A DNA stretch of 64,000 bases from Candidatus Magasanikiibacteriota bacterium (GTDB taxonomy: Bacteria; Patescibacteriota; Patescibacteriia; Magasanikbacterales; UBA922), in NCBI GenBank assembly GCA_018651085.1, contig JABIEQ010000014.1, positions 161,807 through 225,806 of the forward strand. Reading direction: 5' to 3'. This document shows, in pieces, positions 3,508 to 47,767 of this stretch. The notes beneath the pieces are model-generated. The model was given only the letters and a program-made list of their open reading frames with translations, searched no databases and was not told where the DNA came from. Positions within the stretch are counted from its first letter, which is position 1; each line of letters starts with the position of its first letter. The position numbers and the translations under genes were made by a program.

Positions 3508-4350
3508 TTATATTTTATATCGGACAAATTTGTGCTTCCCTCGCCACTTCCAAATATATTTACACCAACTCGCAAGATGTAGTCTTGCTGTTTTATTCTT
3601 AAGCAACGCACGAAATATACCAGGAACCTTAGAAGAAGCTCGAGCATGGACATGCTCAATAACAATATCATGAACATAGTAAACTGGCCAGCCGGCATCC
3701 CACATCATATGACACCAATCACAATCTTCAAGATACAAAAAATATCGTTCATCAAAAAAACCAAGATCATCAACTACTTCTTGTCGTACAATCATAGCAG
3801 CACCAAGCACCCAATCTACAGGGCGAGTATCCATATGATCGAAATCTTTCATCTCTAATCGATCAGCATATTTCTTCGCAATGGCATACTTTTTTTCAAA
3901 ATTGAGATGCTTCAATGGTTTAACTAACATTGAAGAAAGATCAAACCGATAACACGAATATTGGAGTGTCCCATCAGTATTGAGCAACTTAGGACCAATA
4001 CAACCAATATGTGTATGCTCATCCATAAAACGGATAAGTCTTTCAATGGTTTTACTATCTGATGGAATAATTGTATCACGGTTAAGTGCAAAATAATATC
4101 GTGAAGGTGTATGAGTAAAACCTATGGTATTAGCCTTCCCAAAACCAACATTACCACCACAATCAATATAATGGACACCAGGAAATGCTGTAAGCGCTTC
4201 TTTTATATTATCAACATTTTCTGAATTATCACACACAGTTATTTGTATATTAAACGAACAATCCGAAATATCTTCATAAATAGAAGCAATCGCACGAAGG
4301 ATATCATCCTTCATAAATAAATTTACAAATACGATAGTGATGTCTTTCAT
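3508..4350 (-). CDS. Glycosyltransferase family 2.
   Basis: ITIVFVNLFMKDDILRAIASI...VCDNSEN. The likely start is the internal Met (MKDITIV), which avoids overlap with the upstream GT2. Confidence 0.65.
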   Translation of the reverse strand: MKDITIVFVNLFMKDDILRAIASIYEDISDCSFNIQITVCDNSENVDNIKEALTAFPGVHYIDCGGNVGFGKANTIGFTHTPSRYYFALNRDTIIPSDSKTIERLIRFMDEHTHIGCIGPKLLNTDGTLQYSCYRFDLSSMLVKPLKHLNFEKKYAIAKKYADRLEMKDFDHMDTRPVDWVLGAAMIVRQEVVDDLGFFDERYFLYLEDCDWCHMMWDAGWPVYYVHDIVIEHVHARASSKVPGIFRALLKNKTARLHLASWCKYIWKWRGKHKFVRYKI

Positions 4351-5429: not shown

Positions 5430-6278
5430 TTATGTAACTTTAGTTCTAAGCCATACAAGAAAAATTCCAATCGGTCGACAAACCGCAATCCACATCCATT
5501 TCCACCACGGTTCCCATTTTTGAAAATACTGGAGCATACTTAAACTAAATGCTTTTTGTTTCCATAAACTCGTATGCTGTTTAAAACTCTGCCCTACATA
5601 ATCGACACAAGTAATAATAGGAGTATACACCACACGATATTTCAAACGCTTCACCTCACGACAAATATCGACATCTTCATACCAAATAAAATACCGAGGA
5701 TCAAATGGCCAACCAAGAGCATCAATAACATCTCGACGGACAAGCATAAAAGCACCTCGTACAGAATCAACATCCTGTTCTTGTGTTGGATCAAAATCTT
5801 TCATGTGATACTTATTGAGTAGAGACGGAAATAAGTGATGCACCTTTAAAAGAAGACACACTTGTTCCCATACACGAGGAAATCGTCTTGGTGTAGCATC
5901 CCAATTAAGCATACCATGCTCGTCAACCAACATAGGGCTTACAATACCAACATCTGTATGAGTATCCATCCAAGAGACTATTTTATCAATACTCAAAGGA
6001 GAAACACGCATATCTGGATTTAAAAAAAGCAAATACTTTCCAGATGAACGCTGATACCCTTGTATATTGGCAGCAGAAAAACCTTGATTTTTTGCATTTG
6101 CAATAAGCAAAATATTTGGAAAATGTTGAGTGACTAATGAGACAGTATCATCAGTTGATCCATTATCAATAATAATTTGTTCATACGTCACATGCTCACA
6201 CCCAGCAAAAACAGAAGCAACCTGTTCTTTAACAAGAGCAGCTGAATTCCATGTAACAGTGATAACAGATACATCCAT
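5430..6278 (-). CDS. Glycosyltransferase family 2.
   Basis: VSVITVTWNSAALVKEQVASV...IIIDNGSTDDTV. Confidence 0.7.
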   Translation of the reverse strand: MDVSVITVTWNSAALVKEQVASVFAGCEHVTYEQIIIDNGSTDDTVSLVTQHFPNILLIANAKNQGFSAANIQGYQRSSGKYLLFLNPDMRVSPLSIDKIVSWMDTHTDVGIVSPMLVDEHGMLNWDATPRRFPRVWEQVCLLLKVHHLFPSLLNKYHMKDFDPTQEQDVDSVRGAFMLVRRDVIDALGWPFDPRYFIWYEDVDICREVKRLKYRVVYTPIITCVDYVGQSFKQHTSLWKQKAFSLSMLQYFQKWEPWWKWMWIAVCRPIGIFLVWLRTKVT

Positions 6279-8329: not shown

Positions 8330-10093
8330 TTATGAAGACGAAGGAGAAGGAGGAGACGATCCAGAGGCCCCCTTTCTCTTTCTCTTTCTCTTTCTTTTTC
8401 GTTTTCTTTTAGGTTTTGCTATCGATCCTTCTTCCCCTATAACAGGTGATTCAACCACAGAAGGCTGTTCTAAAGAAGATGATTCTTCTTTTTTTTGTAT
8501 CACAGATAAAGGGGTAGAAACGGACTGGACATTTTGTATACTGTCTGGTAATTCATTAGAGGCTTCAAGCTCTTGAAGTGATACGGACAATTCTTCAAGA
8601 GCAGCAAGACTTTCCTTACGAATAACATCTTGAACAACAACCTTTTGTTTAGGCACTTCCTTAGAATCAGATTCTTTTGAAACATTTCCTGACACCTCTT
8701 TTTTCTTTTGTTGAGGTTGAGACGGTTTATTTTGATCTTTAGATAATTTAGTTTCCCCTTCTTGATCTTCTTCTCCGACATCCATACCACTCCAACGCAT
8801 AACTTTCTTTTCAATAAGTTCACGTTCTTTTGCGTATCGTTCACGAGATACACGAACAACTTTTTCTGCACTTCCTGTTGGAGAACCAATGGGAGGCATG
8901 CTTGTTGCACTAAAAGGTAAGGATGCTACCCCATCAATCATTAATTTCAAAAAAATATGAAATTTCGACAAATTTACAATATCTTCTTCAATAAAAGTCG
9001 GCGTAAATTCTTTTACCAACAACTCAGCATCTATCCCACCAACTCGAAAAGTAACCATGGTTCCGACATTTCCAAATACTGCATCAGCCACAACCTCATC
9101 AAGTTGTTTTACGTATTGGTGTGCCAAAATAAGACTTAATCGATATTTTCTCGCTTCTGACAAAATATTAGCAAAACTTGGTGTAGCAAAGTTTTGGAAC
9201 TCATCAACGTATAAAAAAAAGTCCTTTCGTTCTTCTTCTGGCGTATCAACCCGACTCATTGCGGCAAGTTGAATTTTTGTAATAAGCATTCCTCCAAGCA
9301 ATCGACTATTATCTTCACCAATACGTCCTTTTGAAAGATTCATTAATATAATCTTCTGATCATCCATCAATTGACGAATATCAATGGTTGATTTAACTTG
9401 CGCAACCATATTACGAATCACACTCGCAGATAAAAATTGACCAATTTTATTTTGAATCGGCGCAACAGCTTCAGTAGCATATCGTTCAGAATACCCAGCA
9501 AATTCAACCTGCCAAAACGATCGTACAACGGGATCTTTTGTCTGTTTTAAAACTTTTTTTCGATATTTCTTATCAGAAAGCATTCTGTTAATTCCAAGAA
9601 GCGTAGACCCAGGATAATCAAGTAATGCTAAAAGTGTATTATTTAAAATATATTCCATCCGAGAACTCCAGACATCAGGCCAAATCTTTTGAAACACAGC
9701 CATAAGCCCTGATGCAATAAGATGTTTTTCTTCTTCTGACTTTACTTCCAAAATATTAAATCCAATCGGAAATTCAACATCAGATGGATTTATATATACT
9801 ACATCATTAATCCTATGAGATGGGATATAATTAATGACTTTTTCCGCAAAATCTCCATGTGGATCAACCAGACCAAGACCATGTCCATGATAAATGTCAT
9901 GAAGAACCATGTTTTCCATCATGGTTGTTTTTCCCATTCCAGTTTTCCCAATGATGTACATGTGACGACGACGGTCGTCAGTTTTTATACCAAAACGCTG
10001 TGGTTTATTACGAAAATTTGTTTGCGCAAATAAACATATCTCGCCATGAGTATGTTTAGGAGCATTAATTGGTTGAAGATGATGAGTTGGCAT
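8330..10093 (-). CDS. P-loop ATPase of the TraD/VirD4/TraG type IV coupling-protein-like family (T4SS DNA-binding domain-like), with a low-complexity Lys/Arg-rich C-terminal tail.
   Basis: Walker A IIGKTGMGKTT. Walker B-like FLYVDEFQNF. The LILAHQYVKQLDE motif is typical of TraD/VirD4-like ATPases. There is no N-terminal TM segment. The C-terminal tail is ...KPKRKRKRKRKRKRKGASGSSPPSPSSS. Confidence 0.5.
   Translation of the reverse strand: MPTHHLQPINAPKHTHGEICLFAQTNFRNKPQRFGIKTDDRRRHMYIIGKTGMGKTTMMENMVLHDIYHGHGLGLVDPHGDFAEKVINYIPSHRINDVVYINPSDVEFPIGFNILEVKSEEEKHLIASGLMAVFQKIWPDVWSSRMEYILNNTLLALLDYPGSTLLGINRMLSDKKYRKKVLKQTKDPVVRSFWQVEFAGYSERYATEAVAPIQNKIGQFLSASVIRNMVAQVKSTIDIRQLMDDQKIILMNLSKGRIGEDNSRLLGGMLITKIQLAAMSRVDTPEEERKDFFLYVDEFQNFATPSFANILSEARKYRLSLILAHQYVKQLDEVVADAVFGNVGTMVTFRVGGIDAELLVKEFTPTFIEEDIVNLSKFHIFLKLMIDGVASLPFSATSMPPIGSPTGSAEKVVRVSRERYAKERELIEKKVMRWSGMDVGEEDQEGETKLSKDQNKPSQPQQKKKEVSGNVSKESDSKEVPKQKVVVQDVIRKESLAALEELSVSLQELEASNELPDSIQNVQSVSTPLSVIQKKEESSSLEQPSVVESPVIGEEGSIAKPKRKRKRKRKRKRKGASGSSPPSPSSS
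8375..8412. repeat. Simple-sequence repeat (CTTT/CTCTTT)n inside the coding sequence; it encodes the poly-Lys/Arg tail.
   Basis: The string ctttctctttctctttctctttctttttcgttttctttt was read directly. Confidence 0.6.
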
Positions 10094-21368: not shown

Positions 21369-22253
21369 ATGAAAACACCTCAACAAACATACAATACACT
21401 CAATAAAGCAATCGGTATAAAGGACATATACCTTAAAAGAGAAGATCTTCATAAATATGGATCCCATAAAGGGCGATCCATTCCTATGATGATTAAATGG
21501 TATGTGAAAAAAGAAAACAAGAGACACTTCGTTATCTCTTCTTCAGGCAACGCTGCCCTTGCAGCAATTCATGCTGTAGAACAACACAATAAAAACAACC
21601 CTGAAAAACAAATCAATCTTCACATCTATATCGGCCAAAAAATTAATGACAAGAAAAAAAGAAAACTTGAAAAAGCCATTACACAATCAACGACCACACT
21701 TGAACAAGTTGAGCGTCCCAAACAAATGGCTTTTCAAAAAGAAAAAGAAGGTGAAGCAATATACCTAAGACAATCGACAGATGATCTTGCTCTTGAAGGA
21801 TATATGGAGCTAGCCCGTGAATTAAAAAAAATACCCAACCTCCAAGCAGTATTTGTAGCCACTTCATCAGGGACAACAGCTCAAGCACTTGGAGATATCT
21901 ACAAAGAAGACAAGCATCCTATTCAAATTCACATAATACAAACAACAAGTTGCCATCCAATAGCAAGCCTATTTGACACAGAGATTGAATCAAAAGACAC
22001 ATCAACAGCTGGAGCTATTGTCGATCACATTGCTCATAGAAAAGAACATGTAGTAGCTGCCATAAAAAATACCCATGGATTTGGATGGGTTGTAACAAAT
22101 GAAGACATTAAAAATGCTAGAAACATTGTACGCGAACATACAAAAATAGATTTTTCTTCTAATGGGGTACTTAGTATCGCAGGATTACAAAAAGCTATAA
22201 AAAAGGGTTGGTCATGGAAAGGCCCAGTTGCATGCATTATTAGTGGAGAATAA
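21369..22253 (+). CDS. PLP-dependent enzyme, fold type II (threonine synthase/cysteine synthase-like).
   Basis: LKREDLHKYGSHKGRS is analogous to the xSFKDRG lysine motif. A Gly-rich loop SSGTTAQALG is also present. Confidence 0.55.
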   Translation: MKTPQQTYNTLNKAIGIKDIYLKREDLHKYGSHKGRSIPMMIKWYVKKENKRHFVISSSGNAALAAIHAVEQHNKNNPEKQINLHIYIGQKINDKKKRKLEKAITQSTTTLEQVERPKQMAFQKEKEGEAIYLRQSTDDLALEGYMELARELKKIPNLQAVFVATSSGTTAQALGDIYKEDKHPIQIHIIQTTSCHPIASLFDTEIESKDTSTAGAIVDHIAHRKEHVVAAIKNTHGFGWVVTNEDIKNARNIVREHTKIDFSSNGVLSIAGLQKAIKKGWSWKGPVACIISGE

Positions 22254-22285
22254 AAAATACCAATCACGCATTGGTATTTTTTTAT

Positions 22286-22314
22286 TTGACAATACAAAAA
22301 AAAACAGAAATAAT
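22286..22314 (+). promoter_or_regulatory. Candidate promoter reading into inverted-repeat element A.
   Basis: TTGACA (22286-22291), a 17-nt spacer, then AATAAT (22309-22314). The predicted transcription start is at about 22321, the first base of element A. Confidence 0.3.
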
Positions 22315-22320
22315 ACAATA

Positions 22321-22416
22321 GTCATGGCGAGGGTGGTGTGTTGAGATACGTTCATAGATGGAGGTGGTTGTATGATCCATTCTAGAACTGGTGGTTTCCC
22401 ACCCCCTCGCCATGAC
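22321..22416 (+). repeat. Element A: a 96-nt unit closed by an 18-bp near-perfect terminal inverted repeat (GTCATGGCGAGGGTGGTG ... CCACCCCCTCGCCATGAC). Candidate small structured RNA or MITE-like element.
   Basis: The arms were read directly. There is an inner hairpin atgga...tccat. The element is GC-rich against an AT-rich background, and a T-run follows. Confidence 0.5.
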
Positions 22417-22425
22417 ACACCGAGA

Positions 22426-23151
22426 TCATTTTTTCCAAATACTAATAATATTTTCACCAGTATCGATCTCTACTCTTTTCCCTTTTTTTGCATAATATTG
22501 ATCTTCAACAATAAAGCCAACAGATGAAGCAAGATCATTCAACTCTTCAAGACTATAGCCATAATAGTATCGTTTCGCTAAAATTTCCCCTGGTCCATTT
22601 CGCCAAGGCACAATAAAATTTTTCTGATCTTCTGTTGTATACTTCCCCTTTGTCACTTTATCCTGCACCCATCCATTAAATGCATTCCAGTTCGTCATAA
22701 TAAAACATCCCCCCGGACGAAGGACACGAAACATCTCTTTAATAACTTGTTTTTGTAATTGTGGCGGAATATGACAAATAACGGCCACAGCATACAACGC
22801 ATCAAAAGAATTATCTAAAAAGGAAAGTGTACAAATATCTTCTACAACAAATGTCTTATCCTCATATCTAGAACGAGCAAGAGTAATGAGATTTTCACTT
22901 TGGTCCACTCCTGTATACGAAATATCTTTATCGGAAAAAAGCATAGACAATCGTCCATTCCCACATCCTACGTCTAAAATAGTATCTCCATTTTTAATAA
23001 AACGACCCAATTTTTTCAAATCATCCCACAAATAGTCTCGTGTACTTGAAAAAAGATGAGATACAGCATCATAAGCCTCTTTATTTTGCAGAACATAGCG
23101 ATAATCTTGATTTTTTTTCATATATATGCAATACTTATGTCCGTCTGTCAT
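22426..23151 (-). CDS. Class I SAM-dependent methyltransferase (type 11-like). Start alternatives are 23151 (MTDGHK) and 23121 (MKKNQ).
   Basis: ILDVGCGNGRLSMLF motif I. Flanked on both sides by related inverted-repeat elements. Confidence 0.65.
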   Translation of the reverse strand: MTDGHKYCIYMKKNQDYRYVLQNKEAYDAVSHLFSSTRDYLWDDLKKLGRFIKNGDTILDVGCGNGRLSMLFSDKDISYTGVDQSENLITLARSRYEDKTFVVEDICTLSFLDNSFDALYAVAVICHIPPQLQKQVIKEMFRVLRPGGCFIMTNWNAFNGWVQDKVTKGKYTTEDQKNFIVPWRNGPGEILAKRYYYGYSLEELNDLASSVGFIVEDQYYAKKGKRVEIDTGENIISIWKK

Positions 23152-23237
23152 TGCGACACCCTAAACAAGGCTCTTTCGGTTTTGGGTGATATGAGGTGCT
23201 TTACAACTACTCATTTTCCTAGGGTGTCGCAATGACA
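23146..23237. repeat. Element B: a 92-nt unit closed by a perfect 18-bp terminal inverted repeat (TGTCATTGCGACACCCTA ... TAGGGTGTCGCAATGACA). Its outer ends share GTCATnGCGA with element A.
   Basis: Read directly. The arms overlap the annotated ATGs of both divergent genes. There is an inner hairpin atgag...ctcat. Confidence 0.5.
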
Positions 23238-24953
23238 ACACAGATTCTTATGACTGAAGAAATATTAGAACAAATCATGGCATTTATTGTTGAGAAGCAA
23301 CCTGAAAGTAAGGTTGCTTTTGATGATTTACGAAGAAAAAAATGTAGCGCACTCAAAATATCTCAACCAGCCAACAGAAAATTACTCAAAGCCTATCATA
23401 GACTCATCAAAAAAGGAAGTATCACAGCAGACACACAAATAGAACATTTCCTTAGAAAAGCCAATATTAGAAGCATGTCTGGTATTGCAGTAGTAACTTC
23501 CCTTACAAAACCGTACATGTGCCCAGGAAAATGCGTCTATTGCCCAACAGAGGTACGTATGCCAAAAAGTTACCTTGCATCAGAACCAGCAGCCGCTCGT
23601 TCTATGCGTCTTGATTTTGACCCATATGAACTCATGCAAAAACGTATTGAGATGATGGAAGATAATGGGCATCCTTGTGACAAAATAGAATATATTGTAA
23701 AAGGAGGCACATGGAATGCATACCCTTTAAAATATCAATACTGGTACATCCTTGAATCATTCAGAGCATGTAACAATTTAAAAAGTGACACCCCCTCAAA
23801 AAGAACATGTGAAGACGATTGGAAAGAAAAGACAGTAAAGGATCTTCAAAAAGAAATGCTTATTGAACAAGAAAAAAATGAATCTACAAAATATAGAATT
23901 ATTGGTCTTACTTTAGAAACACGTCCTGATGCCATTTCCCCAAAAACCATTTGGCACATGAGAAATATGGGATGTACTCGAATAGAACTTGGTCTTCAAG
24001 CACCCGACGATAAGATCCTTGACCTTATTCAAAGAGGACATAGTGTCGATCAATTTAGACGAGCAATGCACCTTCTAAGAAAAGCCGGATTTAAAGTAGA
24101 CCTTCATTTCATGCCAGATCTTCCAGGGTCAACACCCGATCACGATGTCGAGATGTATAAAAGTCTTTTTACTGATGAATCACTTAAACCAGACATGGTG
24201 AAAATTTATCCGAATACGGTAATCCCTTCAGCTGAGCTATACGAATGGTATAAAGATGGTAGATACACTCCATATAAAGAAGAAGAACTATTTGAAGCAC
24301 TTCTTCAAATGAAAGAAGTGACTCCTCGATACTGCCGAATATCTCGACTTATTAGGGATATTCCAGAAAATGAAATCATGGCCGGAAATAGAATTACAAA
24401 CCTCAGACAACATCTTGAAACTATTCTTCATAAACGTGGAAAAATATGCCAATGTCTTCGATGCCGAGAAATAGGCAGACAAATGAAACATGTTCCAAAA
24501 GATACCACACCAATACTATTTATTGATGAATATCAAACTGTTGGAGGAAAAGAATTTTTTATTACGTTTGAAGACCCTAAAAGAATTGCCGTATTTGGAT
24601 TTTTACGACTACGTCTTCCTGAAGAAGTACATAAGGACATCAATTGGATATCACAAAAAGAAGATACAAATAATGGAAAAGAACTCTTTTCACTTCTTCC
24701 AGAAATAAAAGATTGTGCCTTCATAAGAGAACTCCATACCTACGGCCAGCTTATTGGTATTGGACAAAAAGGAAACAGCGATGCTTCTCAACACAAAGGC
24801 CTCGGGAAAAGACTTATCAAAGCAGCTGAAGATATTGTACAAAAACATGGGTACACAAAATGTGCAGTCATTTCAGGTGTGGGTGTAAAAGGTTATTACG
24901 AAAAGTTAGACTATAAAAAAGAAGGTACCTACGTTGTAAAACATTTCAATTAA
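23232..24953 (+). CDS. Elp3-family radical SAM / GNAT acetyltransferase (tRNA wobble-uridine modification enzyme homolog).
   Basis: Radical-SAM cluster motif MCPGKCVYCP. The C-terminal GNAT region FIRELHTYGQLIGIG...GLGKRLI matches Elp3 architecture. Length 573 aa. Confidence 0.8.
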   Translation: MTTQILMTEEILEQIMAFIVEKQPESKVAFDDLRRKKCSALKISQPANRKLLKAYHRLIKKGSITADTQIEHFLRKANIRSMSGIAVVTSLTKPYMCPGKCVYCPTEVRMPKSYLASEPAAARSMRLDFDPYELMQKRIEMMEDNGHPCDKIEYIVKGGTWNAYPLKYQYWYILESFRACNNLKSDTPSKRTCEDDWKEKTVKDLQKEMLIEQEKNESTKYRIIGLTLETRPDAISPKTIWHMRNMGCTRIELGLQAPDDKILDLIQRGHSVDQFRRAMHLLRKAGFKVDLHFMPDLPGSTPDHDVEMYKSLFTDESLKPDMVKIYPNTVIPSAELYEWYKDGRYTPYKEEELFEALLQMKEVTPRYCRISRLIRDIPENEIMAGNRITNLRQHLETILHKRGKICQCLRCREIGRQMKHVPKDTTPILFIDEYQTVGGKEFFITFEDPKRIAVFGFLRLRLPEEVHKDINWISQKEDTNNGKELFSLLPEIKDCAFIRELHTYGQLIGIGQKGNSDASQHKGLGKRLIKAAEDIVQKHGYTKCAVISGVGVKGYYEKLDYKKEGTYVVKHFN

Positions 24954-24956
24954 AAA

Positions 24957-25105
24957 AACACCCTGTATAGGTGTAGAAGTTGTCTGTAGCCCGAAGCTGA
25001 GAAGTAGCAGAAGCTACAGACAACTCCGGGGGTCCTTGTCCCCCACTCTCGCAACAGTTGATCTAGGACCATCCCCCTCATTAAGACACAAGGGGGTACA
25101 GACAA
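24957..25105 (+). ncRNA. Candidate structured RNA or regulatory element of unknown class in a GC-rich intergenic stretch.
   Basis: Perfect 13-bp stem AGTTGTCTGTAGC/GCTACAGACAACT with a 22-nt loop at 24978-25025. Further GGGGG/CCCCC stems follow. About 220 nt non-coding between Elp3 and the NUDIX gene. Confidence 0.3.
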
Positions 25106-25175
25106 AAAAAATATCACATATAGACTTATTTGTCAATGATTAAAGGGATTGGTACAATAGCAATACAAGAAATCT

Positions 25176-33330: not shown

Positions 33331-34374
33331 TCAATGCTTCGCGATACTCGCCTCCCTGTCGGGGAAGTCGTTCGTCACGCCGAGACCGGTTTCGAGAACA
33401 CTCTGACCATCGAGGGCCAAAACATCCTCACCGTTCTCTTGAAGTTCACCACCAGTGCGGTGAACGGCGTAACGATTCTCGTCGGAGACATCAGAATCAT
33501 TACCGAACTTCACCAAGGATACCATCATGGCCTTCTTACCACCCGTAGACACGTTCCACGTGCCAACGGGACGGTTGTCCTGGCAGCGGCCAGAGACAGC
33601 GAATTCGGCATCGAGGTAGCGGACCACCTCGAGAACCTGGCCATTGGCCTGGGCCTTGTCGCACGACACCATGTCCACGACTCGACGCTCAACACTCAAA
33701 GGAAGCTTGGGCGTCGGGAGACTCGCGAGGAGCTCCGCGTCACCCTCTTCCTCGAAGACGTTGAGGTCGTTGAAGTTGAAGGTTTTCTCCGAAGCCTTCT
33801 TGGCCACAGGAGCAACACCTCGAGTGGACGCGTATGCCTGTGCTTCACGCTCGGCATGAACCTCGGCTTTAGCGCTCACACTCGTAAGGGAAGTGATCGG
33901 CGCCTCGATAACCCGCTTACGCTGCTCGCGCTTCGGGGTATTCTTGACGCTAACTTTCCACCAGTTCGTGACGAGCCGATTTTTCTTATCGGTCGTCATC
34001 TGAGCCGGCCGACCTCGACCACGCTGCGTCTTCTTGACAGCAGCAGGACGAGGATCCGAATCGAAAGTATCTCGATGCCCAAGGGCTTCTGCCAAGAACG
34101 TCTCGATTTCTTCAGCAGAGGGCTCTTGGTTAAGCGCCTCATACACATCGAACTTTTTCGCGGCGGGCGGATCAGCGGCCCGGCGGGCACGCTCACGGCG
34201 GAGTCGCGACTCTTCGAGCCACGCCCCCTCGTTGCGCTTCACGCTTCCACCCTGACTGATCAGATCTCCATCGGTCACACTGAAGGAAGGTCCTCCAGCG
34301 ATCGCTGACGAGATAAAGCTCAGGTTCAGGGCGATGACGATGGCCACGAGGAGAGCGATGTTCGGCTTGTTCAT
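33331..34374 (-). CDS. GC-rich secreted hypothetical protein (347 aa) with a signal peptide.
   Basis: Signal peptide MNKPNIALLVAIVIALNLSFISSAIA. Strong RBS AAGGAGGAATTACC immediately upstream of the ATG. No recognisable domain. Confidence 0.55.
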   Translation of the reverse strand: MNKPNIALLVAIVIALNLSFISSAIAGGPSFSVTDGDLISQGGSVKRNEGAWLEESRLRRERARRAADPPAAKKFDVYEALNQEPSAEEIETFLAEALGHRDTFDSDPRPAAVKKTQRGRGRPAQMTTDKKNRLVTNWWKVSVKNTPKREQRKRVIEAPITSLTSVSAKAEVHAEREAQAYASTRGVAPVAKKASEKTFNFNDLNVFEEEGDAELLASLPTPKLPLSVERRVVDMVSCDKAQANGQVLEVVRYLDAEFAVSGRCQDNRPVGTWNVSTGGKKAMMVSLVKFGNDSDVSDENRYAVHRTGGELQENGEDVLALDGQSVLETGLGVTNDFPDREASIAKH

Positions 34375-34454
34375 GGTAATTCCTCCTTAAGGAATCTGTA
34401 GTAGGATGCGCAGCTCAAATGGCGCTACCCTACAAAGGTTTGTTACTCTCACAA

Positions 34455-34503
34455 CTCTAGACTCATATAGAATGAGTACTACTCAACCTATATGAGTCTA
34501 GAG
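34455..34503. repeat. Perfect 16-bp inverted-repeat hairpin (CTCTAGACTCATATAG / CTATATGAGTCTAGAG) with a 17-nt loop, at the right boundary of GC-rich island 1.
   Basis: Read directly. Confidence 0.6.
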
Positions 34504-34764
34504 AGGAATAACAGAAAAACAAAATGTAAAGAGCAAACGCAACTGATAGATTCATCTATCATGGAGAAACAGGGAATATCCATGCTCTTCCATGCGGACG
34601 AATTCGGGAAATATTACTACTTTGTAACAAAAGACTATACCATAAAAAAGCAACGTTGTCAATACACACAACAAAAATAATGGCTTTGTTAAACCATTAT
34701 TTTTAAACTACGCTCAACGTAGCAAAAAACAAAATTACATTTTGTTAAATAAGTTTATACAATT

Positions 34765-47486: not shown

Positions 47487-47639
47487 ATAGTAATAATAAA
47501 ATAAATGACTGATTCCACCGTACTATGTTTTTAGGTAAAAATCAAGACCTCCATTAGATTGCCATAAAGAAATATTTTTGTTACCATCGGCAAGTAACTT
47601 TTTAGTTAAAGGAGGACATACAGCTGAATTTCCATATAT

Positions 47640-47692
47640 TCTGAGAGACAATGTATTTTATCATTACATGGTGCATTACATTGTCTCTCAGA
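47640..47692. repeat. Perfect 16-bp inverted-repeat hairpin (TCTGAGAGACAATGTA / TACATTGTCTCTCAGA) with a 21-nt loop, at the left boundary of GC-rich island 2.
   Basis: Read directly. Confidence 0.6.
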
Positions 47693-47767
47693 AAAATAGA
47701 CGGAACTGATCATTGAAGGGTAATAGCACCCTAAGAAAATCAAATTCCAAAAATTACGGAGGAAGCG

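Follow-up and report, generated by a model that had tools for sequence, protein, structure and literature searches.

We describe a pair of short foldback elements, A and B, that bracket a class I S-adenosylmethionine (SAM)-dependent methyltransferase gene in a Candidatus Magasanikiibacteriota genome, within a stretch of 64,000 nucleotides of contig JABIEQ010000014.1 (positions 161,807 to 225,806) that is referred to as the window and whose own coordinates are used throughout. An initial annotation made from the sequence had proposed a small structured RNA, a bidirectional operator, or mobilisation of the gene by a miniature inverted-repeat transposable element (MITE). We lean, with limited assurance, toward another explanation, namely that A and B are old, independently diverged copies of a small palindromic repeat inserted in the spacers around a resident methyltransferase gene, with ends that represent the head of the CGTC/TGTC-tagged dimers of repetitive extragenic palindromes (REP). 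Judged from gene order and sequence in relatives, the methyltransferase gene is a resident syntenic gene and not mobilised cargo. The two elements are as follows.

22321..22416, no strand assigned: element A, a 96-nt foldback with arms GTCATGGCGAGGG and CCCTCGCCATGAC.
23146..23237, no strand assigned: element B, a 92-nt foldback with arms TGTCATTGCGACACCCTA and TAGGGTGTCGCAATGACA.

Element A starts 9 nt past the methyltransferase stop codon, and element B takes up most of the 128-nt spacer between the methyltransferase gene and a divergent gene for an ELP3-like protein. The arms of B, 18 nt each and 100% complementary, are separated by 56 nt, whereas the arms of A are perfect over 13 nt and its stem reaches 17 bp with one 1-nt bulge on folding; the perfect 18-bp terminal stems that had been ascribed to both elements are thus found in B but not in A. 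The shared outer ends had been read exactly: the sequence GTCATnGCGA occurs in the window with zero mismatches at the four arm positions of A and B only, and a search for perfect long-range hairpins (stem of at least 13 bp, spacer of 56–70 nt) returned no others in the window. It is these common termini, GTCATnGCGA/TCGCnATGAC, that make A and B related elements, as had been proposed, and they are the only part that the two have in common.

Both strands of A and of B, taken as RNA or as DNA, fold with z scores of -5.4 to -8.2 relative to shuffles. Because the interiors folded alone behave like shuffled sequence (z of -0.5, -2.0, -0.2 and -0.6), the terminal stems carry all of the folding signal. 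The inner hairpins described in the initial annotation therefore do not rise above shuffles (z of -0.2 to -2.0), and the notion of a conserved structured interior fails as well: the interiors of A and B show no similarity beyond that of shuffles in either orientation, and had no further match in any sequence compared in the analysis. With interiors that are both unrelated and structureless, the two elements are related through their 10-nt ends only. Searches against Rfam at the gathering threshold over the whole window returned two tRNAs only, and at E values up to 10 over positions 22200-23350 they gave nothing credible for A or B. Several other identities were considered and dropped. Signal recognition particle RNA, 6S RNA, Y RNA and riboswitches were set aside for A and B on sequence grounds or without matches, as was the idea that A is a remnant of the pterin-4a dehydratase gene that occupies its position in one relative (L122), and a type I toxin at A was rejected, the 51-aa open reading frame (ORF) at 22372-22527 being antisense to the methyltransferase gene.

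The termini of A and B recur in a large repeat family. Bacterial genomes, one per species, were scanned with the pattern GTCATNGCGA-N50-80-TCGCNATGAC, which was found at no fewer than 120 loci with 130 elements and 260 arms, and repeats of this type are also abundant in IMG/VR viral contigs (L135-L254, at least 120 loci), some of which hold 2–3 copies; the expectation that further copies would exist elsewhere is thus borne out for the terminus pattern. Among the genome matches listed, the hosts include Bradyrhizobium, sphingomonads, Micavibrio, Rickettsiales, Pedobacter/Mucilaginibacter, Chloroflexi, cyanobacteria, Planctomycetes and Patescibacteria (L022, L074), and in the common architecture a short stretch of variable sequence separates GTCATTGCGAG from GAAGCAATCC(A), a centre that also varies comes next, and the mirror image completes the element. 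Across the 260 arms of the same matches, GTCAT is preceded mostly by C (63%) or T (30%), T dominates at position 6 (91%) and G at position 11 (93%), and the inner GCAAT is most often followed by a CCA tail. The inner GCAAT-CC box is present at least once in 128 of the 130 genome elements listed, the remaining two being decayed versions, and in 132 of the 144 viral-contig matches listed, where the other 12 are mostly chance-like, several of them being identical sequences on different contigs. Among these 12 is the viral contig L245, in which the head is joined to a REP-type palindrome of another kind. No Rfam family was matched at 18 loci with canonical elements, and a full-text literature search for GTCATTGCGAG returned unrelated primer sequences only.

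The scan matches fit the published superfamily of CGTC/TGTC-tagged REP dimers, a correspondence that we draw from its textual description and not from consensus sequences. According to that description (Di Nocera, De Gregorio and Rocco 2013, BMC Genomics 14:522; PMC3733652), the tag is often TGTC or CCTC, the stem starts with AT and a CCA tail is present; each unit is a short palindrome, and most units form head-to-head dimers. The same survey reports 20 to thousands of copies per genome, mainly in alpha-proteobacteria and Bacteroidetes, mentions intragenic copies and no linked transposase, ties the repeats to Neisseria dRS3 and to Rickettsia RPE-4 and RPE-6, and names no host from the Candidate Phyla Radiation (CPR) (PMC3733652). 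For Patescibacteria, a literature search on palindromic repeats and MITEs yielded no relevant paper.

Compared with that description, A and B possess the tag, which reads TGTC on both sides of B and on the right of A, and AGTC on the left of A. All four arms read GTC-AT, so that the stems begin with AT, and the heads face outward in inverted orientation and pair into one long hairpin, as in REPIN-like doublets. The described repeats are also like A and B in their length of 70–100 nt, in a variable centre, in the lack of an adjacent transposase and in their location in gene-end spacers. The first 10–11 nt of each element equal the consensus GTCATTGCGAG except for one rare base, a G at position 6 in A and a C at position 11 in B. 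Unlike the repeats described there, A and B are without the inner box (GAAGCAATCC/GGATTGCTTC) and without the CCA tail, their centres are long (56–70 nt), and their host is a CPR bacterium. Since tag and head are present but the inner box is absent, we call A and B a head-only variant and not canonical members; from the sequence comparisons, a head-only relative of the CGTC-tagged REP superfamily is the most fitting description.

Fuller members occur in other Patescibacteria. In one relative (L127), a 102-nt palindromic element at 9603-9704, with the head GTCATCCTGAGCG and the inner box CGAAGGATCC, lies in frame within a conserved gene and adds 34 residues (VILSERNEERVTEVEGSHEKQGDPSTPLRSAQDD) to a protein of 248 aa whose counterparts in L122, L125 and L133 have 224–225 aa; in this it resembles the Rickettsia palindromic elements. 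A Patescibacteria metagenome-assembled genome (MAG; L022) holds two canonical GTCATTGCGAG elements 2.2 kb apart, at 3703-3793 and 5977-6067; one of the copies forms the C-terminal tail of a 524-aa membrane-protein ORF (...SLRGSLATKQSP...ARNDRQF), and the other fills a 110-nt gap between two glycosyltransferase genes. As read from these sequences, the insertions in L127 and L022 are evidence that such elements move in this lineage.

Other classes of small repeat resemble A and B less closely. MITEs likewise have terminal inverted repeats (perfect over 13 bp in A and 18 bp in B) but, unlike MITEs, A and B have no target-site duplication and no common interior, and no parent insertion sequence is known for them. 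Bacterial MITEs that affect their neighbours include the Correia elements of Neisseria, the pneumococcal BOX, RUP and SPRITE elements and the QMITEs of Coxiella, and RNA hairpins of MITEs near promoters or in untranslated regions (UTRs) can alter mRNA stability or translation (PMC10969869). Like A and B, these elements are short and non-coding, have terminal inverted repeats, would form stable hairpins if transcribed, and lie beside promoters and in UTRs; unlike in those elements, the promoter at A sits outside the element and not inside it. An integron attC site, which is defined by R''/R' cores RYYYAAC ... GTTRRRY and a nearby integron integrase, was rejected, as A and B end in GTCAT...ATGAC and their neighbours are genes for SHMT, a NUDIX protein, the ELP3-like protein, a pyridoxal-phosphate (PLP) enzyme and a Mur ligase. 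Also rejected were an intrinsic terminator at A or B, for which a T-run should stand directly behind a G+C-rich hairpin (none was called, and the T-run lies 13 nt beyond the stem of A), and an in-frame insertion of the Rickettsia palindromic type, as B lies outside both genes and A past a stop codon.

The evidence that the methyltransferase gene has not been mobilised comes from the two genes around B and their surroundings in relatives.

22426..23121, minus strand: class I SAM-dependent methyltransferase gene, 231 aa from MKKNQ, with the start given by the public gene call and by homology.
23250..24953, plus strand: ELP3-like radical SAM/acetyltransferase gene, with a homology-supported ATG at 23250 (MTEEILEQ).

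The methyltransferase is 100% identical to a public protein of a Candidatus Magasanikbacteria MAG (Patescibacteria/CPR), present on contigs as long as 863 kb, and two contigs of the same species (L121, L129) are 100% identical to the window. The relatives compared have methyltransferases 44–62% identical to it; one further locus (L128) came from a metagenome scan with the ELP3-like protein, which gave three loci of which one was useful. A conserved block of genes for SHMT, the NUDIX protein, the ELP3-like protein, the divergent methyltransferase, a convergent PLP enzyme, a LysW-like protein and a Mur ligase is present in L122, L124-L127, L133 and L134, so placing the PLP-enzyme gene next to the methyltransferase gene in each of these. 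At least the ELP3-like/methyltransferase pair is retained in L131 and L132, and the pair is present in all relative loci examined. Elements with GTCATnGCGA ends were absent from the junctions flanking the methyltransferase gene in L122, L124-L127 and L131-L134. The starts of the two divergent genes are separated by 0–3 nt in L128 and L131-L134; the spacer is longer in L124 (29 nt), L125 (77 nt) and L127 (88 nt) and reaches 128 nt in the window, and both ends of the L125 spacer (CATAAGA... and ...GACGTAAAAAGTATAC) align with sequence on the two sides of B. On the other side, 20 nt separate the methyltransferase gene from the PLP-enzyme gene in L125, and in L133 these two genes overlap. Given these compact spacers and the conserved synteny, A and B have the appearance of insertions, specific to their lineage, on either side of a gene that has long been resident. 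The suggestion of MITE-mediated mobilisation is contradicted by the same syntenic block in relatives at 44–62% identity, and relatives that carry the methyltransferase gene at its conserved position without the elements, an observation named beforehand as refuting mobilisation, were indeed found. We also observe that the divergent pair (window, L128, L131-L134) extends across distant Patescibacteria, often with start codons that abut or overlap, which suggests that the two proteins may be functionally coupled, for example in successive steps of tRNA wobble-uridine modification.

The position of B relative to the two genes depends on their true starts. The ATGs in its arms (23151 on the minus strand and 23232 on the plus strand) do open the longest ORFs, so the statement that the arms hold the start codons of both divergent genes is right for the longest ORFs; N-terminal alignments with eight relatives, however, place the starts at 23250 for the ELP3-like gene and 23121 for the methyltransferase gene, and the extensions are absent from all relatives. 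These homology-supported starts lie outside B, by 12 nt and 24 nt respectively, which makes B wholly intergenic and removes the proposal that the folded element would occlude both start codons. Public annotation is affected as well, because the ELP3-like gene is called there from the ATG at 23232, within the right arm of the repeat.

Three features determine where A and B would lie in transcripts.

22286..22314, plus strand: sigma-70-type promoter TTGACA-N17-AATAAT, 11/12 matches, with a predicted start at ~22321, the first base of A.
22252..22282, no strand assigned: AT-rich 13-bp hairpin AAAAAATACCAAT/ATTGGTATTTTTT, flanked by an A-run and a T-run.
23107..23135, plus strand: ELP3-like promoter TTGATT-N17-AATACT, with a predicted start at ~23142, 3–5 nt before B.

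The promoter of A, with its predicted start at the first base of the element, had been recognised in the initial annotation and is credible. Sigma-70 matches of at least 11/12 number 5 in the window against 2.7 expected, all with TTGACA and a 17-nt spacer; of the other four sites, three immediately precede a gene or tRNA, and the last heads a long structured leader, with the gene start ~260 nt further on. The T-run that had been noted after A exists, but it begins 13 nt past the stem and no terminator is called there. As the terminator scan called none downstream of A, the predicted transcript of A would continue antisense into the methyltransferase gene. From its sequence, the hairpin at 22252-22282 is likely a bidirectional terminator for the transcripts of the PLP-enzyme gene and of the methyltransferase gene, the latter reading past A; the scan missed it because it has only 2 G-C pairs.

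The ELP3-like promoter scores 8/12 in the window, which is under the threshold of the generic scan, and it is kept in the window, L122, L124, L125 and L127 as TTGATT-N16/17-TATACT/TATAAT/AATACT. It is embedded in the first methyltransferase codons (K-N-Q) on the opposite strand, its -35 box being the reverse complement of the N-Q codons, and its conservation within these codons marks the two genes as an old, interlocked pair. In L122, L124 and L125 the MGKNQ/MQKNQ codons persist although the called methyltransferase start is downstream or out of frame, which suggests, on sequence grounds, that they are kept as promoter. The -10 region of the relatives, AGTATACT, is nearly palindromic and may serve both directions. 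No promoter with acceptable spacing was found inside B or reading outward from its ATGACA ends.

Long hairpins of unrelated sequence occupy the same places in some relatives. In L122, a rod-like hairpin of 75 nt begins at ~+3 of the ELP3-like leader (z of -6.1), with no Rfam family for the hairpins of that locus; L127 has a small hairpin in this leader, and none was found in the leaders of L124 and L125. At the position syntenic with A, L124 has an 89-nt hairpin (5875-5963) with a 14-bp terminal stem (AGAGACAACCTATG) and a z score of -6.9, unrelated to A in sequence; a 9/12 promoter (TTGAAA-N17-TATTGT) precedes it, and a bidirectional terminator lies 9 nt beyond its end. As separate observations, G+C-rich unrelated hairpin insertions are present at the ELP3-like/methyltransferase junction in L122 (4700-4790 and 4850-4965) and L124 (5036-5100); two such insertions directly follow the ancestral MGKNQ codons of the methyltransferase gene, at a point common to two genomes that may be an insertion hotspot.

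Structured candidates elsewhere in the window were noted in passing. On the minus strand at 24955-25136, between the 3' end of the ELP3-like gene and the NUDIX gene, at a place that a ThiD2 gene occupies in relatives, lies a candidate structured RNA of ~150 nt with a TTGACA-N17-TATTTT promoter (10/12, with TG before the -10 box), an intrinsic terminator at 24974-24958 and a closing stem around three hairpins (minimum free energy -63.3, z of -4.1), without an Rfam match. At 34374-34662, also on the minus strand, an 11/12 promoter (34662-34634) is followed by a leader of ~250 nt and then by a gene start with a strong AAGGAGG ribosome-binding site; a hairpin with 24-nt arms (34455-34503) lies within the leader, which may be regulatory and has no Rfam match at the gathering threshold. 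A near-perfect hairpin with 26-nt arms (17-bp perfect core TTCTGAGAGACAATGTA) is found between divergent genes at 47639-47693; a GAGAGACAA motif shared between it and the L124 element was considered and dropped on sequence grounds or without matches.

Under the explanation toward which we lean, the 10–11-nt ends of A and B, [T/A]GTC-AT[T/G]GCGA[G/C], would be the head of the CGTC/TGTC-tagged REP-dimer superfamily, and the elements would have arisen by the same trans-acting process that spreads CGTC-type repeats, presumably as single-stranded DNA hairpins through an enzyme acting in trans. Once the copies were fixed, any effect would come through RNA hairpins at the 5' ends of transcripts. Element B would span ~+4 to +95 of the ELP3-like leader, ending 12 nt before the start codon, and element A would start at +1 of a strong-promoter transcript that enters the 3' end of the methyltransferase gene in antisense direction; in the methyltransferase mRNA, from the minus strand, A would form a 3'-UTR hairpin upstream of the predicted terminator at 22252-22282. 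A 5'-terminal stem of 13–18 bp would be expected to protect from RNases that depend on the 5' end, and the source genome encodes RNase Y; the stem of B could also damp translation initiation or ribosome access at the ELP3-like gene. Stabilising stem-loops at the 5' end are established for the E. coli ompA leader and the B. subtilis aprE and ermC leaders. These are like A and B in having a long stem 0–5 nt from the transcript 5' end, which here is a predicted one, but unlike A and B they are gene-specific leaders and not dispersed repeat copies.

A number of observations weigh against the repeat-insertion account and hold our preference for it in check. A GCNAT partner box is missing from both halves of each element, and neither arm forms a REP-like unit by itself. 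Copies of the A/B type number two, within 1 kb of each other, in the 64-kb window, and the exact 11-mer heads of the A and B types were not found in the viral contigs. No target-site duplication is seen at either element (flanks ACAATA|A|ACACCG and CCGTCT|B|ACACAG, with B taken as GTCAT..ATGACA), and there is no transposase within 5 kb of A or B. Perfect stems of 13–18 bp around diverged interiors suggest selection on pairing, which would fit a functional RNA equally well, and the unrelated hairpins at the same transcript positions in L122 and L124 could mean that the hairpin itself is selected.

These last points lead to the alternative to which we give most attention, though we regard it as doubtful: A, and perhaps B, would be a dedicated small structured RNA in which the closing stem GUCAUnGCGA/UCGCnAUGAC is a site of protein recognition or processing and the interior is free to vary, the likeness to the REP head then reflecting either ancestry (exaptation) or convergence. 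The 11/12 promoter with its predicted start at the first base of A speaks for such an RNA, as do stems that have stayed perfect despite unrelated interiors, the unrelated 89-nt hairpin with its own 9/12 promoter and terminator at the syntenic spot in L124, and another promoter-to-terminator candidate with a closing terminal stem at 24955-25136. It is less easily reconciled with the missing terminator after A and a T-run 13 nt off, with B, which has no promoter of its own and lies in the ELP3-like mRNA leader, with interiors whose structure does not exceed chance, with the failure to match any Rfam family, or with the several relatives that have no element at these positions. Of the sequences in which covariation might show, the nearest relative, 62% identical at the protein level, is too distant to be useful, and the same-species contigs are 100% identical to the window.

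The remaining alternatives are weaker. A DNA-level role for B, as a cruciform or bidirectional operator to which a regulator of both divergent genes binds, or in a variant as a short invertible promoter segment between inverted repeats, is very unlikely: B does fill the control region that the two genes share, it has perfect arms of 18 bp, and each arm reads outward TAGGGT-N6-ATG in frame with the flanking gene, but half-sites 56 nt apart are not a known operator geometry, A bears this head too, in a convergent 3' spacer that offers nothing to operate, and no regulator or recombinase gene lies within 5 kb. No credible promoter is found inside B and, for the invertible variant, a 56-nt segment is far shorter than known invertons. 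Two independent, coincidental palindromes are an extremely improbable explanation. The unrelated interiors and the count of two copies in the window would suit it, yet nine specified bases at the termini agree between the only two hairpins of this kind in the window and are the same as the head of a very large family (at least 120 genome loci), with an estimated chance of order 1e-5 or less. We give almost no credence to the view that the methyltransferase gene was mobilised within a MITE-flanked composite unit with A and B as its terminal repeats. The attraction of this view is that elements sharing their 10-nt termini lie on both sides of the gene; against this stand the neighbours and orientation conserved in relatives at 44–62% identity, most of whose loci are element-free, the ELP3-like promoter built into the first methyltransferase codons and conserved across relatives, and elements with unrelated interiors and no target-site duplication.

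The main value of the result is corrective, in that a gene between two inverted-repeat elements looked like a mobilised cassette and is not one. The comparison also extends CGTC/TGTC-tagged palindromic repeats to Patescibacteria, including an in-frame insertion into a conserved protein of a relative, and brings out a head-only form in which just the terminal 10–11 nt are kept. It is conceivable, though in our judgement unlikely, that the 10–11-nt head alone is the functional unit, either as the recognition or cleavage site of the enzyme that spreads CGTC repeats or as the site of an RNA-binding or processing protein; it is similarly improbable that, on that basis, A and B are minimal head-only elements selected as 5'-terminal RNA hairpins in a streamlined CPR genome. 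If this were true, the head-only elements A and B would be a simple system for finding what recognises this widespread repeat. Unrelated long hairpins recur right after two promoters in this lineage, and their recurrence may bear on the stabilisation of RNA 5' ends in tiny genomes with few known regulators.

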